A stretch of DNA of 63,967 nucleotides, filler included, from Blastocystis sp. subtype 4 (Eukaryota): assembly GCF_000743755.1 (NCBI RefSeq). It is 13 parts of 13 records of this genome, joined end to end, with 100 filler letters (N's around TTAATTAATTAA, not from the genome) between each part and the next. Parts side by side here need not be neighbours in the genome. Positions count along the whole stretch, not along the records: positions 56,643 to 60,699 come from NW_014569015.1; 12 more parts are not named here. One strand, written 5' to 3'. Positions 15,389 to 61,566 of this stretch are shown here, piece after piece. The position numbers and the translations under genes were made by a program. The number at the start of each line of letters is the position of its first letter. Position 1 is the stretch's first letter. The notes below the pieces were generated by a model. That model had not been told where the DNA came from, searched no databases, and saw nothing but the letters and a program-made list of their open reading frames with translations.

Positions 15389-15467
15389 ATTTGGTTGTTT
15401 GTTAACTGAACAATCACACTCAAATCCAATGAAGGAAGATAGTCCAATACAAGAGGACTTGGGAGAA

Positions 15468-15813
15468 ATGACAATTCGAATCAATAGTATCGTAATTCAA
15501 GTGAAATATAACACATAGAGTAACAAAAAGAGAAGAACAACTGATACAGTAGATGGACAACTGTGGGATATTGGAAATGGGATACAGAAAATGAAGATTG
15601 TCCCATCTGTTTGATGCCAATGGATGGTTGTTGTAGTGCTTGTTCTCTTCCTGGTGATAGTTGTCCTCCAGGTTGGTTCTAGTGTGTAGAAATCATTTTG
15701 TAGTGACTGGAATCTGTGGTCATAGTTGTCATGCTCATTGTATGTCCAAATGGTTACAAACTCAAGAAACATGTCCCAAATGTAGAGCCAAATGGAGTGA
15801 AAAGGTTGTATAA
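15468..15813 (+). CDS. APC11: Anaphase-promoting complex RING-H2 subunit 11
   Basis: Spliced WTTVGYWKWDTENEDCPICLMPMDGCCSACSLPGDSCPP-VTGICGHSCHAHCMSKWL..CPKCRAKW. Confidence 0.88.
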
Positions 15814-15870
15814 TAGAAATGTGTGTTCCAATCAACAAACAACAAGGAAGCGTAGTTCGCACCCAACCAA

Positions 15871-16385
15871 TTACAGACGCTTACCACGACGACCGTGAGG
15901 CTTACGAGTAGAATCAGTAGGAATAGGAGTCACATCCTCAATTCTACCAATCTTCATTCCAGCACGAGCCAGAGCACGAAGAGCAGCTTGAGCACCAGGA
16001 CCAGGAGAAGTGGTTCCGTTACCTCCAGTAGCTCTCAGCTTAATGTGCATAGCAGTGATGCCCAACTCCTTGCAACGAGCAGCAACATCCTGAGCAGCAA
16101 GCATAGCAGCATAAGGAGAAGACTCATCACGATCAGCCTTCACCTTCATTCCTCCAGTCACACGCACAATAGTCTCACGACCAGACAGATCAGTTACGTG
16201 AATAAAGGTGTCATTGAAAGAAGCATAGATGTGAGTCATCACAAACACCTCCTCTCCCTCACGAACATTCTGAGGACCAAGTTTCACAACTTCCTTTTCT
16301 TGTCTTTCCTTTCTAGGGGCCTACACACCATTAGCTCCTTCTTACAACAACCACTTCATTCACTCAATCAACATCCACATACCAT
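15871..16385 (-). CDS. RPS14: 40S ribosomal protein S14 (uS11)
   Basis: [53 protein letters not shown] followed by an intron. Confidence 0.98.
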
Positions 16386-17036
16386 TGTAATAAGTTAAGT
16401 TTGGGGAGTAATTAAACTGCCGTGAACTACTTTGTGACAAAAGGAAAGGTTGAATGAATCCATATTCAAAACAATCATGCTAGCAGCAAATTAATACAGA
16501 ATGATTCAATTCCTATAGAATTCTTATGTTATTCACGAATCAATCGAATTGATATGATCTTGAATCATCTCATTTCATTCAAAGAGATAAATAAAGGGTA
16601 TTTGAAACCATTCATAACAATCGTATCATTGAAGGATGAAAGAAAGACGAGAAAGAGAGTGATTATCATTTTCTGTAATAGAAATAGTTATTCAATGTAT
16701 TTGTAATCGATTTAAACCTAGAAAAGGAAGATTCACAACAAGTCACAATCTATCAACTAAAACAAGTCAATCATATTATCATTCATTTCTAGTATATTTC
16801 ATACATTCTTATCATCCTTCTTTCACTAGATTCATGATCATATCACCAAACTCATCTAATATCTCATTTATGACTCGTATATCATTCGAATTCACAGAAT
16901 TCTCTTTTCAAACTCACATTCAACAATTCACAGAAATTGGTAGAAATTCTGGAGTAGTCTTAAAACGATCAGTTCTCTTGAACGCTTAGTCGGAGTTTCT
17001 TTCTTTTAGTCCCTTTTTGTTTGAATTGACTAAGCA

Positions 17037-56542: not shown

Positions 56543-56890
56543 NNNNNNNNNNNNNNNNNNNNNNNNNNNNNNNNNNNNNNNNNNNNTTAATTAATTAANN
56601 NNNNNNNNNNNNNNNNNNNNNNNNNNNNNNNNNNNNNNNNNNCAAAATCTTCTTCTATTCCAATTATTCTGTGCGTATTGTTTATCATATACAAGATGAT
56701 ACAGAACCTAGTGAGTTCCATGATTTGTTTGTAGATAATGGGGCATGTTTAAATGCAATCTATGTTCGACCCTATCAACGAACAGCTACGAATTGTTTAC
56801 ATTCAACAATAGGTTGAGCTAGTTGTATAACAAGTCAATCTGATAGTTGGTAGAGAATTAAGGAATTACTTGTAATAATAAAGAATAAGG

Positions 56891-57283
56891 ATGAGTTACA
56901 TATTCTCTTCCAATGGGAACAATTACACATTTCGCAAACTTGATAGTATGTTAATCAATATGCCTGAGAGTCAACATGTTCTTGTTCGTCAAACTATCAA
57001 CAATATCCCTACATATTCTTGGACTGATGCAGCCATTATTGTGAAGGTGAATCAAGCTTTGATCTTTGAATATACTCCTGCTGTTACAGAAAGTCTTGAA
57101 CACAAGTTTCATTATTCATTGGCTAAAGGCAATTATCTTGTTACTACAACAGTCACATGTTATACAAATGATGATCTATTCAATGATTGTAATTCTATTG
57201 AAAATGTACTTGATAAGGGTTATTATATCAAAGTGAATTTGGCTGATCAAATTGAATACTCCTGTTATCGATTCACTCAATAA
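56891..57283 (+). CDS. Orphan 130-aa beta-rich protein of the viral element
   Basis: Clean intronless ATG-TAA ORF. Confidence 0.6.
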   Translation: MSYIFSSNGNNYTFRKLDSMLINMPESQHVLVRQTINNIPTYSWTDAAIIVKVNQALIFEYTPAVTESLEHKFHYSLAKGNYLVTTTVTCYTNDDLFNDCNSIENVLDKGYYIKVNLADQIEYSCYRFTQ

Positions 57284-57492
57284 TCTACTTACCAATACAC
57301 AACAAACTGTGATTGATAATCAGGAAGAACAAACAACGATATCTGTTGAAACAAATCTACAAGATGTTGTTATGTTGAAAGGAGTTAAGTCTATTTGTGT
57401 CGTTTTCGAGCAGTAACCTTTCTGACTCCTAGTAACTGGTAATCCTTTAGGTTTTGTTTGTGAACGAGTCACTGGTTTATGTGTTTTAGCAG

Positions 57493-58412
57493 CTACTTTC
57501 CTGCTTTCAGGAGTTCTTTCACTTTGTTTCGTGTTTGGATAATTGACTTTGTTACAGGGATACATTTGCTCTTTAACAATTCCCAATGATAGTACTTTCT
57601 TCTACAAACACTATCATTCTCACTATTCTTCACTTCATACATTATTGGTTTCACACTATCATCAATACCTACTACTTCATACAATGTTCTTGACCATTTG
57701 AATGTTAATGACTTCTTTTGTAATACAGATGGTTTTGAAACAACTCGAACATACTCACCAATACCAAATTGGGGTGTTCTATCTTTCATACTCATTCTAT
57801 CAGAATCAGGTTCAGCATCTTCCATATACACATAATTCTCTTTCCATATTTGATTCGGTGTATATCCAGTATCATTATTCTTATGTTCATTATGTTTCTT
57901 AACAGCATTATCAATATAGTCTGCCCAAATACCATTACTTCTGTTAAATGGTACCATAATCGACTCTTTGATAGTGCGTATTACTCGTTCTGCAAATACT
58001 GATTTGTTCTCAGAAACCATATGATACATTTTGATGTTGTATTTGTTGAGTATTTGTGTACGAAATATGTCATTCACAAATTCACTACCTCGATCACAAT
58101 TGATACAATCTGGAGCACCATATGTCTTGATGATATCATTCATTTTGGCAGCTACTTCTTTACCTGTTTTTGTCTTAAGTAATCGTGTCATTAGATATCT
58201 AGAATATCCATCAATACATACAAGAACATATTTGTAACCATGATTCTTGTTGAAGTTGCCCCATTCTTTATCAAATTATCTTGTATCCATCGTTCTTGTT
58301 TACTACTAAAGTCCATCAGATCAATGTAATAGATATGTCTCTTACAACTGTTCATGTACCTGGTTAATCCTTGTGGCTTTGCTCTTGTTTTGAGTTCTTT
58401 CAATTCATTCAT
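57493..58412 (-). CDS. Polinton-type retroviral-like (rve) DDE integrase; frameshift near 58268
   Basis: YYIDLMDF / NHGYKYVLVCIDGYSRYL..LKTKTGKEV / INCDRGSEF / FAERVIRTIKE / GYTP / FGIGEYVRV..KWS..YEV..YYHWELLK. Confidence 0.9.
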
Positions 58413-58494
58413 GTTTACCTTTGATAAAAGAAATGATTAAGGTAATTTCTACTTTGGTAGAGAACTATGTTTTCGTTTTACTCTGTAACAGTAA

Positions 58495-58707
58495 ATGAAT
58501 GAATCTAGTATTTGGAAAAGACTATGGAAATGGATGAAAGGATTATTCAAACAGAAGAATCACAAATTGGTAGTGAATACGAAATGCAAAGATACCTGTT
58601 GTTGTCATTCATCTTGTCTATTAGTGTATAATGAGAAGAATGAATCTACAGATGATAGTGGATCTGATATTGAGGTGAGTCCAACTGGTATAATCAAAGT
58701 GAAATAG
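58495..58707 (+). CDS. Small orphan protein with amphipathic Trp/Lys N-terminus and Cys cluster
   Basis: IWKRLWKWMKGLF..CKDTCCCHSSC; fills the gap between the integrase and the fibre-like gene. Confidence 0.5.
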   Translation: MNESSIWKRLWKWMKGLFKQKNHKLVVNTKCKDTCCCHSSCLLVYNEKNESTDDSGSDIEVSPTGIIKVK

Positions 58708-58715
58708 GTTTAACC

Positions 58716-59825
58716 TCATAGTTCTACCAATCTTACTACCAATCTCTTTATCTTATGACTAATCGTTGTTGCTCCAGTTCGTTGAATTCCTAATGTGAAT
58801 GTTTCACCATTAGCAGTGAATATTCCATTTCCTGTGATATGAATGAATGGAAGAGGATTTGCAATCACATTTGATTCAATGATATACTCTGGATTTGATC
58901 CATTTGAAGTGTAGTATACACCAATCAAAGGCTCATTTCCACTCGTAAATCCATCCAATACTGCTTCATAATCAGAACATCTTAAGTCTATATCAACTGT
59001 CATCAAGTATTGTTTTCCCATTTCAATTGTCAAATCATCCGATGTTATCATGTTATCATCGGATTTACCACCAAGAGTACAACTAACAAGTGTATCATTC
59101 TTTCCAGTTGTATAATGAATTGATTTGAATGTCTTACTACCATTACCAGATGTAGCTACTAAAGCAGGACCACTAGTACCAATACTCAACAAGTAATTAC
59201 CTTCAGTTGATGGTAAACTCAATCCTTTTGCATCACCTCCATACAACATAACGATTTGATTCTTGTTTGAGTCTAAACCCCAACAATGTTTCATAATGTT
59301 CTTAGCATTCATTGATACCCAATTGTATCCATTTGAATCTTTCTGCATATACCAAGAACCAGCTGATGGGAGTTTCATTGAAGAAACAGATGTTCCATTC
59401 CAAAGAGGAAATGATGGTTGTGCTGCTATTCCTTCAATATTCAATAGATCAGCGAATATGGTGGCAGGAGTGAGTTTTGTGAATGTTTTAGTGTTTGTTT
59501 GTACATTAAGTATGTAAATACCTGATGATGAAGGGATATCAAGAGCAGCAAATGTAGTGGGTGATGTGAAATATGGAATTGTACCTGATGTAGCAACAGA
59601 TAATGTACCTCCTCCTGTTTGAAAGTAAGTATTGGTAAGAGATTGTAGTGCAGCTGGTTGTTGTGCAAGAGTTATAGCACCATTTTGATAGGATATAACA
59701 TAATTACCTTCAGTAGTAGGCATAGGTGCAGTAGTGAATTGAGAGTTATTGTAGTATTGAAGACCAGGTGTTAATTCCTTCTTCTTGAATACACCATTTT
59801 GGAGACATACAAGTTTCTGTGACAT
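58716..59825 (-). CDS. Fibre/spike-like structural protein (369 aa from MSQKLVC) with four imperfect repeats and a beta-rich C-terminal domain
   Basis: PTTEGNYVIS, PSSSGIYILN, PSAGSWYMQK, PSTEGNYLLS about 50 aa apart (first gap ~63); T/S/G/N-rich; no signal peptide or TM. Confidence 0.55.
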   Translation of the reverse strand: MSQKLVCLQNGVFKKKELTPGLQYYNNSQFTTAPMPTTEGNYVISYQNGAITLAQQPAALQSLTNTYFQTGGGTLSVATSGTIPYFTSPTTFAALDIPSSSGIYILNVQTNTKTFTKLTPATIFADLLNIEGIAAQPSFPLWNGTSVSSMKLPSAGSWYMQKDSNGYNWVSMNAKNIMKHCWGLDSNKNQIVMLYGGDAKGLSLPSTEGNYLLSIGTSGPALVATSGNGSKTFKSIHYTTGKNDTLVSCTLGGKSDDNMITSDDLTIEMGKQYLMTVDIDLRCSDYEAVLDGFTSGNEPLIGVYYTSNGSNPEYIIESNVIANPLPFIHITGNGIFTANGETFTLGIQRTGATTISHKIKRLVVRLVEL

Positions 59826-59921
59826 TTTCTTACTAAGTAAGAAAAGAAAAGTCACGTAGCAATTGGTTGAATCTGGTTTTATGAATAACAATGATTCTGC
59901 TTTTTTTATCCTATTAGTAAA

Positions 59922-60699
59922 ATGACTACGATTCCTCCTACACATAACTATGAATCTCAAGTTGTGTTCTCAAATCAACAGAACAACATCAAATCAAATG
60001 ATGTTATTAATTGGACAATAGCTCCTTCAGGTGATGATACTTATTTTGATCTGTACAAGTCAAGAATGACATTCAAAGTGAAGATGACAGGTCTAACAAG
60101 TACTAGTAGTGATAAAACTATCTATGTTCCTGTTAAGAAGAATATGGCAGGAATTGTGAACAATACGAAAGTGACATATACATATTGGGATGGTGATAGT
60201 CTTGCATCATTACCACTATCTGCAGATAATGAAAACATTGGACAAATCCGTTCTTTGTTAAATACAATTACTGATAATAAGCACAATAATGTTGTAAATG
60301 AGGGTCTTAAAGAACTATCATACATTGCTTATGATGATGTTAGTAGTACAAATGCTGCTACACTTGGTCGTCCTTATGATGGTAAACTCTTCTATAATGT
60401 GTTGAAGTTTGTTCAGAAGTCAGGATCCACTGTTGCTTATTCAACTATCAATGTCAACTTNTCAGATATCTTTGAAGGATGTTCACAGGAACGATTCATC
60501 AATCTAACACAAATGGATGCTCAGATCATTCCTACCAATGATGATGCATATTTCTACATTAGTAATGGTAAGATCAAGACAATGTCATCTCCTACTACAG
60601 ATCCTGTAGATACTACATTTGGAGGTGTATTCTTTGATAGTTGTATTCTGTGGTATCATAGTTACAAGACTGCAAATGAAGATGCATTTGATCCTGAAG
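59922..60699 (+). CDS. Putative double-jelly-roll major capsid protein (3'-truncated)
   Basis: VINWTIAPSGDDTYFDLYKSRMTFKVKM resembles the Polinton capsid N-terminal pattern (I.F.I....Y.DL..S.L..K.KI); also INVNxSDIFEGC. Confidence 0.65.
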
Positions 60700-60799: not shown

Positions 60800-60898
60800 T
60801 AGAAAAATGAAATGGATCAAGAATCGATTCTTATACCCATATTCATACCATAATAATACAATATTTAGGGTCCATCAATCCATTCAATTGGTTACTCC
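60800..60898 (+). repeat. 99-bp terminal direct repeat, identical to 63869-63967
   Basis: TAGAAAAATGAAATGG...GGTTACTCC at both ends of the contig. Confidence 0.97.
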
Positions 60899-60933
60899 GA
60901 TTCCCTTTTCGTTCATTCACATTCATTGTCAAT

Positions 60934-61530
60934 ATGCTCTCTAGGCATTCATTTCATTCATATTCATTCATTATTAGATTTGCTTCGAAGACTATTCTCT
61001 CTGCTCGCGCTGTAGCCACTCGTTCTTTCGCTACCTATTTCTCTAAGGACCACGAATGGATTGAGGTATTGAATTGATTATTGAGATGATAATATGATAG
61101 TATACTGCTGGAAAGCCTGCTGTTGTTGGAATCACTGACTATGCTCAACACTCTCTTGGTGATATTGTTTACATTGAACTTCCTGAGGTTGGAAGCACCA
61201 TCAAGGCTGGGTATTGATTCTTTCTATTTCTGAATCTAGAGATTCCTTCTCTTCTGTTGAATCTGTGAAGGCTGCTTCAGATGCTTTCTGTCCTGCTACT
61301 GGAAAGGTCCTTGAAGTGAACACTGTATTTGTCTTTGTTAGTTTTGAATATAGGCTCTTTCTGAGACTCCTTCTATTGTGAACGAATCTCCTATGGAGAA
61401 GGGATGGTTCATGAAGTTGGAGGTAGTTTCTTATTTATTTGATGAGTTTTAGCTTTCAAATCCTGATGAGCTGAAGAGTTTGATGGATAAGGCTTCTTAT
61501 GATAAGTTCTGCAAAGAAGCTGAACACTAA
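60934..61530 (+). CDS. GCSH: Glycine cleavage system H protein with N-terminal targeting-like peptide (multi-intron)
   Basis: [39 protein letters not shown] (lipoyl-Lys), [14 protein letters not shown]. Confidence 0.96.
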
Positions 61531-61566
61531 GTCGATTTGATTTGATGTGTTTGTTACAAACAGTGT

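Follow-up and report, generated by a model that had tools for sequence, protein, structure and literature searches.

A 4-kb contig in a Blastocystis sp. subtype 4 assembly as a probable internal piece of the multi-copy Blastocystis MELD virus

The window analyzed here is a 63,967-nucleotide stretch of the Blastocystis sp. subtype 4 (ST4) assembly GCF_000743755.1, in which 13 contigs are joined by N-linkers and along whose whole length all coordinates are counted. The contig under study (NW_014569015.1, positions 56643 to 60699) is a single 4057-bp piece between N-linker spacers, with a GC content of 0.336. With a probability of about 0.88, it represents an internal 4-kb piece of the ~24-kb Blastocystis MELD virus, an element carried in multiple copies on its host's chromosomes, and this copy likely belongs to a provirus whose integrase is dead. 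The basis for this reading is gene content and linkage, a predicted capsid fold, identity to deposited virus genes and to genes of Blastocystis sp. BT1, and breaks in the reading frames. According to a six-frame translation, the contig carries, in order, the end of a 188-amino-acid (aa) gene, a 182-aa gene, an integrase gene on the minus strand, a 70-aa open reading frame (ORF), a 369-aa ORF on the minus strand, a spacer, and the start of a capsid gene.

For comparison, 29 loci (L001 to L029) were taken from a metagenome scan, with L004 serving as the intact reference locus. Eight of the 29 match the contig at 97.8% identity or more, three of them on contigs of 22,984, 23,995, and 24,736 bp. 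The contig is 97.9% identical to L004, and such human-gut contigs of 23 to 25 kb also encode a protein-primed DNA polymerase, an ATPase-like protein, and a penton-like protein. Within the 20,537 of 23,995 bp of L004 that were examined, we found a 1602-codon ORF, the block seen in the window in intact form, ORFs of 868 and 326 aa, a 445-aa protein, and ORFs of 95, 227, 114, and at least 708 aa. The 227-aa protein is letter-for-letter identical to DAC81484.1, a GenBank third-party annotation entry labeled “hypothetical protein [Blastocystis MELD virus].” This identity, together with a “MELD virus sp.” capsid that is 72% identical to that of the contig, refutes the suggestion of the initial annotation that the lineage may be undescribed. 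The virus is already named and deposited, though little studied: it is introduced in section 3.4 of Starrett et al. 2021 (PMC8502044), in a few sentences and a figure, and “Blastocystis MELD virus 3996” is used in a tree within the preprint 10.1101/2022.05.25.493380. Nothing differing in kind from the deposited virus was shown, and the linked penton-like protein is identical. The window copy is only part of the element, and its integrase is broken. The passages that Starrett et al. devote to the virus do not include multi-copy integration into chromosomes, a capsid model, or cis-acting motifs. The residual value of the present analysis thus lies in the unreported multi-copy integration, the breadth of the family, the element's own cis-signals, and the pattern of deletions.

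The capsid gene (59922 to 60699, plus strand) is intact to the contig end apart from one N at 60461, and only the first 259 of its 425 codons are present because the contig ends there. With its first 179 residues as the query, 75 relatives were obtained among 844 candidates; they are 54 to 99% identical and mostly 415 to 455 aa long, and none of them is named. An AlphaFold2 model built from an alignment of 51 sequences reached a predicted local distance difference test (pLDDT) score of 84.8 and a predicted template modeling (pTM) score of 0.85. When this model was compared with the PDB by Foldseek, the Sputnik capsid came out on top (E = 1.6e-12), followed by the PRD1, mavirus, and iridovirus capsids. 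VIA-align matched the model to a PBCV-1 capsid chain (Z 20.7, root mean square deviation [rmsd] 4.1, 315 residues aligned), to faustovirus (Z 19.1), and to mavirus (Z 17.0, rmsd 4.8, 350 aligned); capsid or scaffold proteins of viruses fill ranks 1 to 16, after which Z drops to 6.1. The best match in BFVD is the “MELD virus sp.” protein A0A8S5L5M3 (72% identity, TM score 0.93), which belongs to the same family and to another lineage. The Blastocystis BT1 protein KAK8793536.1 is 99.6% identical. The structural comparisons support the double-jelly-roll major capsid protein that had been proposed and that is expected of a Polinton/Maverick-like element, and this fold is well supported as a prediction. 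The 72 full-length proteins among the 75 relatives form 8 groups at 80% identity and 20 at 85%; the family thus comprises at least eight lineages at the former threshold, and single alleles occur on hundreds to at least 1000 gut contigs. Across L001 to L029, the GC content of the element follows the capsid lineage (0.32, 0.40, 0.41 to 0.43, 0.44, 0.46 to 0.47, and 0.485), a pattern that could stem from lineages residing in different subtypes of Blastocystis.

The integrase gene (57394 to 58412, minus strand) provides the second hallmark. Its product matches Pfam rve (PF00665) with an E value of 3.8e-11 and a bit score of 43.6, the cut-off being 32.6, and none of the seven other pieces scanned exceeded the cut-off of any Pfam family. 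The intact 339-aa copy displays the catalytic residues D32, D108, and E143, the last two lying 35 residues apart, and combines a Polinton-type core with an SH3-like tail and no chromodomain. It also carries a 20-aa clade-specific insert after the first aspartate and, in an alignment, is 24 to 32% identical to chromodomain-bearing relatives. The Polinton-type DDE layout described in the initial annotation therefore stands for the intact copy; what went unnoticed is that the window copy is frameshifted. A frameshift after 58257 divides it in two, and the frame changes again after 57526 and near 57414. Since the break after 58257 separates the first catalytic aspartate (on the piece 58412 to 58191) from the other two catalytic residues (on the piece 58272 to 57493), the window integrase would be dead. 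The block 57414 to 57432 is part of a known 342-aa integrase allele, and the lengths point to a leftover frame change of 2 nt. A 38-nt Blastocystis-type intron near 58257 was considered and rejected, as the 339-aa ORF of intact copies runs through this stretch without interruption and its protein sequence there is conserved throughout the clade.

The rve domain is common to Polintons, Ginger elements, and long terminal repeat (LTR) elements, and weak matches to foamy-virus integrase and IS481 were also obtained. It could accordingly be asked whether the integrase is that of a Ginger or LTR element, or whether the contig stems from a different gut organism as a contaminant. We regard either as scarcely tenable, since both are already contradicted by synteny and by the BT1 records: integrase and capsid genes share a block, with a polymerase nearby, in lineages whose integrases are 55 to 65% identical to that of the window, named near-identical homologues come from Blastocystis BT1, and a 67% identical integrase homologue is recorded from Blastocystis subtype 1. 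That the contig is part of a Polinton-like DNA virus of Blastocystis that integrates and encodes a capsid is supported by the fold, the linked genes, and these records; none of the findings named beforehand as speaking against it (no jelly roll or linked core genes, an integrase of the Ginger/LTR type, or an origin in another organism) was obtained.

The remaining core genes of the virus were sought in the linked loci, and polymerase, ATPase-like, and penton-like genes were found on L004. The 1602-codon ORF is close in the ESM Atlas (0.95 and 0.94) to clusters in which 19 to 45% of members carry PF03175, and its nearest clusters consist mostly of arthropod PF03175 proteins; its motifs are presumably those of an exonuclease and a B-family polymerase. 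In a Pfam scan this ORF gave neither a PF03175 nor an OTU match, and a 2C_adapt match was weak (E = 0.0013, under the cut-off). The protein-primed B-family polymerase expected of a Polinton/Maverick-like element is thus present in the linked loci, outside the window contig. The 445-aa protein contains Walker A/B-like, arginine-finger-like, and Gln motifs, is ~70% conserved, and has no profile match; we take this P-loop protein to be a candidate A32/FtsK-type packaging ATPase. The 227-aa protein scores 0.97 to viral Atlas clusters, one of which has the Sputnik V18/19 minor capsid family in 26% of its members, making it a candidate penton-like protein.

Several further features were observed in these loci. 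The polymerase and ATPase genes differ in orientation and place between L004 and both L023 and L024, and the integrase-fibre-capsid block is kept. L013:1-16967 encodes a 74% identical capsid, a polymerase, and an ATPase, and has a 35-bp tandem array at its end. No homologue of the integrase, of the 188-, 182-, and 70-aa genes, or of the window fibre was found in these 16,967 of its 17,457 bp, so L013 is possibly an integrase-less lineage. A 2C_adapt-like motif occurs in a 153-aa ORF (L004:1021-1482), twice in the N terminus of the polymerase (1583-1800), and in the ATPase (15433-16770). Seven GG[AS] motifs stand in the basic 326-aa protein (L004:14042-15022); they look like the protease sites that core proteins carry in adenovirus- and poxvirus-like viruses. 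On the minus strand, L004:18195-20537 encodes a protein of at least 780 aa whose C terminus is 27% identical over 100 aa to the penton-like protein; it may be a penton into which a large spike domain has been inserted.

The evidence for integration comes mainly from BT1, which passages of PMC10690189 assign to ST4. For the integrase, capsid, polymerase, ATPase, and penton-like proteins of L004, BT1 has counterparts that are 96.8 to 100% identical, all annotated as “hypothetical protein.” With one accession neighborhood taken as one site, the viral genes of BT1 occupy at least eight neighborhoods on contigs of 622,523 to 2,054,810 bp; on the longest contig, the capsid (WA171_002671) and integrase (WA171_002673) genes are two locus tags apart. 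Near-identical genes at about eight neighborhoods on contigs of 0.6 to 2 Mb therefore point to multi-copy integration. Insertion into host chromosomes is thus seen through near-identical genes on BT1 contigs of 0.62 to 2.05 Mb rather than through junction reads, and the window copy itself would be integrated as well. The fibre protein of the window is found in identical form on 940 contigs, the longest again of 2,054,810 bp, and the L004 ATPase and penton-like proteins are found on at least 1000 contigs each.

Viral and host read depths, which the initial annotation had proposed to compare, could be examined in four runs (mouse gut, rat gut, and two coded organisms). The viral contig and pieces of a neighboring host contig co-occur in all four, and the depth of the virus is higher each time (9 to 19 versus 2 to 7 for the host pieces, ~2.5- to 3.5-fold); contig depth is no copy number, and the excess fits multi-copy integration. 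The same excess would also be expected if the contig derived from free virions or episomal DNA rather than from an integrated copy, and many metagenome contigs end at 22 to 25 kb, with no junction visible in the window. We nonetheless consider this origin improbable, since multi-copy integration in BT1 accounts for both the depth and the contig size, and a dead integrase next to a broken neighbor gene better suits a resident provirus. In other runs, 0.86 of the contig's words were present in X15, labeled seawater metagenome, and 0.06 to 0.32 in the RNA runs X16 to X20.

No description of integrated copies was found in the literature searched, subscription papers and bioRxiv supplements lying outside that search. 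In the BT1 genome paper, “integrase” occurs 0 times, and Maverick and Polinton are absent from nine of its supplements; the main text of PMC13215967 makes no mention of the element. Blastocystis genomes are among those screened in Bellas 2023 (PMC10120064), whose later supplement sheets may hold more. No relative of the element was found in the collection of IMG/VR viral contigs that was searched.

A number of results weigh against the identification of the contig as a piece of an integrated, decaying Blastocystis MELD virus. The comparison with the deposited virus covered the single protein DAC81484.1. Sequence searches of Pfam, PHROGs, NCBIfam, and the PDB left the polymerase, ATPase, penton, and fibre unnamed, and the capsid as well. 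No protease was recognized in the 20,537 of 23,995 bp of L004, and neither a terminal inverted repeat nor a target-site duplication was seen in the stretches examined, the contig being internal and without a host junction. A search for 17 element proteins in the other window contigs found none encoded there. Finally, the window deletions are absent from 6 loci, 4 runs, and 375 stored proteins, and the truncated products they would yield are absent from a collection of 15 billion; because the deletions are seen nowhere else, they may be technical.

To weigh decay against artefact, the window copy was compared with five loci over 56880 to 60366. It shows seven private deletions, two insertions, and seven substitutions (all in one block), versus 14 substitutions and no indel among the five loci themselves. 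Part of this is natural variation. Once known alleles are set aside, the changes private to this copy are about seven deletions (6 nt after 56969, 5 nt after 57251, 2 nt near 57414, 1 nt after 57526, 1 nt after 58257, 3 nt after 58359, and 4 nt after 59854) and one substitution, at 56742. Spacer differences of 12 nt and 1 nt are apparently common to run X2, the 1-nt one also occurring in L003. The 70-aa, fibre, and capsid genes make up 55% of the span and carry no private change (post hoc p ~0.004 for seven events). A host contig of 7,145 bases showed no indel over the 4,577 bases covered, and the assembly is therefore not generally error-prone. Under an alternative reading, the virus is the same and the frameshifts are an assembly artefact from a collapsed multi-copy repeat, the real copies in the strain being intact. 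Besides the absence of the deletions elsewhere, this would explain why the four BT1 integrases are listed at full length (339 to 342 aa) and why about seven deletions accompany one substitution, an odd ratio for neutral decay; the N at 60461 and the mixture of two known alleles in the contig also agree with it. Yet only one deletion lies in a homopolymer, the sizes range from 1 to 6 nt in ordinary sequence, the host contig is free of indels, and random error would not favor events that spare 55% of the span. An artefact is thus a real possibility that we judge to be the less probable one, and we lean toward a decaying provirus whose deletions are biological. Such a disabled provirus is likely because the integrase is broken and the capsid and predicted fibre genes are intact. 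Two candidate mechanisms were not upheld: most deletion junctions lack microhomology by eye, which does not support microhomology-mediated repair, and the two replaced blocks share no stretch of at least 12 nt with L004, both having proved to be natural alleles rather than of templated origin.

The 369-aa protein (58716 to 59825, minus strand), intact and transcribed divergently from the capsid gene as first described, is likely a fibre or spike. Its structural model is poor (pLDDT 54.4, or 54 when rounded), and the assignment made in the initial annotation is weakly supported; the predicted architecture is one of repeated beta-hairpin units followed by a C-terminal single beta-sandwich head. 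A search yielded 11 relatives among 2386 candidates, and 10 sequences were aligned. The head resembles TNF/C1q-type domains, BclA, the STIV turret, a cyanophage tail-fibre domain, and PRD1 P5 at Z scores of 6.2 to 7.7, which are in the middling range by the tool's own scale. In the same loci, fibre identity is 28 to 31% versus 75 to 77% for the capsid, and this greater variability fits a receptor-binding part. Between their integrase and capsid genes, L011 and L014 carry other ORFs over ~3 kb, without a homologue of the fibre or 70-aa protein, which suggests a swapped fibre module.

The divergent arrangement of the fibre and capsid genes across a 96-bp spacer (59826 to 59921) was confirmed. 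The spacer is a candidate bidirectional promoter with the start-proximal motif TAGTAA on both strands, and it measures 111 bp in L004 and 42 bp in L023 and L024. The 42-bp spacers (L023:9202-9243 and L024:7153-7194) are close to symmetric and carry the start motif in both orientations. Signals near gene starts and ends were counted in hand-picked ORF lists of four lineages (L004, L013, L023, and L024). Of 38 starts, 20 are immediately preceded by TAA or TAAA, compared to 2.1 in shuffles, and the resulting TAAATG resembles the poxvirus late promoter. Past the stops, T[TC]ACTTTG occurs at 12 to 39 nt in 17 of 47 cases, compared to 0.2 in shuffles, and on both sides of convergent pairs too; in the window, this candidate viral 3′-end signal lies at 58695 to 58702 on the minus strand, 13 nt past the fibre stop. 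The host signal TGTTTGTT, which follows ~96% of Blastocystis poly(A) sites according to passages of PMC4159000, is found 22 times in the other window contigs versus 4.3 expected (maximum of 9 in 20 resamplings). By this signal, and by the short introns of the gene to the right of the viral contig, those contigs resemble Blastocystis DNA. TGTTTGTT never occurs in exact form after the 47 viral stops, and within two mismatches it occurs after 13 of 47, versus 12.1 in shuffles. The proposal that the viral 3′ motif is a variant of TGTTTGTT was rejected, as the near-matches are at chance level.

As leads only, the start and 3′-end motifs leave a virophage-like dependence on a helper possible. The element could then be a provirophage, integrating by itself and needing a giant DNA virus of Blastocystis for its transcription and particles, and it may protect its host in the way mavirus protects Cafeteria. 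Intronless genes that lack TGTTTGTT and have start and 3′ motifs of their own would suit this, as would the virophage capsid found by Foldseek as the closest solved fold, and there is a precedent in the helper dependence of such virophages in Cafeteria (PMC10945749). Against it, no helper virus was identified, and for the egoviruses, the giant viruses known from the gut, passages of bioRxiv 2024.03.23.586382 report an absence of gene flux with Blastocystis. The capsid is moreover only 9 to 11% identical to those of virophages, capsids of nucleocytoplasmic large DNA viruses rank higher in VIA-align, and factors encoded by the element, or ordinary ones of the host, could read the motifs. We consequently view the provirophage proposal as unlikely. 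A bolder version is more doubtful again, namely that of diverse, still-mobile, multi-copy provirophages with their own signals and an undiscovered giant helper, whose copies the host disables by a deletion-only process. If true, an integration module would have been caught being stripped, with capsid and fibre intact, in the commonest eukaryote of the human gut.

For the Blastocystis MELD virus as preferred here, a life cycle of the intact element can be proposed from its gene content and known Polinton biology. The linear genome would be replicated by the protein-primed B-family polymerase, and the DDE integrase would place it in host DNA. Packaging, driven by the ATPase, would be into an icosahedral shell built of the double-jelly-roll protein and of pentons; the fibre would bind the next host cell. 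Particle formation and the role of the fibre are inferred on these grounds. As a cultured, long-read-sequenced ST4 strain, BT1 offers a ready system for studying particle production, the need for a helper, and silencing by a gut protist. In Blastocystis genomes, viral genes of this kind risk being mistaken for host genes or for lateral transfers, and gut virome surveys risk missing them.

The element resembles animal Polintons/Mavericks and adintoviruses in having a protein-primed B-family polymerase and an rve integrase, the combination that defines these groups in passages of PMC8502044. It differs from them in its protist host, its integrase without a chromodomain and with a 20-aa insert, and the lack of a recognized protease. 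The proposed Adintoviridae call for an animal host and adintovirus virion proteins, whereas named homologues of the element come from Blastocystis only and the adintovirus capsid match is 12% identical; the element is not an adintovirus, and the relevant passages of PMC8502044 file the Blastocystis virus as MELD. With mavirus and the endogenous virophages of Cafeteria (Maveriviricetes), it shares a stramenopile host, a double-jelly-roll capsid, and multi-copy integration; mavirus also encodes a protein-primed B-family polymerase and an rve integrase. The element differs from these virophages in that capsid identity is 7 to 11%, no virophage protease was recognized, and no helper virus is known. 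Passages of PMC9952930 base membership in Maveriviricetes on a virophage-type capsid, ATPase, and protease, as recognized by the study group's profiles.

The remaining features of the contig are conserved viral genes of unknown function and polymorphic intergenic sequence. The 188-aa gene (56643 to 56817, plus strand) is represented by its 3′ end only because the contig begins inside it; the encoded part is 98% identical to residues 132 to 188 of the L004 protein, and the product is 50 to 59% conserved in other lineages. It is followed by an alternative intergenic allele (56818 to 56870), a natural polymorphism of the element that differs from the five loci compared and is matched without differences by short contigs of runs X1 and X5. 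The 182-aa gene (56891 to 57413, plus strand), whose homologues in other lineages are 48 to 55% identical, is broken in the window copy: the 6-nt deletion after 56969 is in frame, and owing to the 5-nt frameshift after 57251 the ORF ends at 57283, leaving 130 of 182 aa. The 70-aa ORF (58495 to 58707, plus strand) is intact, 100% identical to that of L004, and 61 to 63% identical in other lineages. Overall, stop-free stretches of at least 150 aa cover 0.68 of the viral contig versus 0.00 to 0.54 of the 12 other window contigs, and no intron is needed in its genes because related loci read through as plain ORFs. The initial description of a contig packed with intronless ORFs thus holds for coverage and for these loci, and fails for the integrase and the 182-aa ORF, which are broken. 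Next to the viral contig, positions 60800 to 61560 hold a host gene with introns of 29 to 35 nt and TGTTTGTT at 61548, which by eye we take to encode a glycine cleavage H protein.

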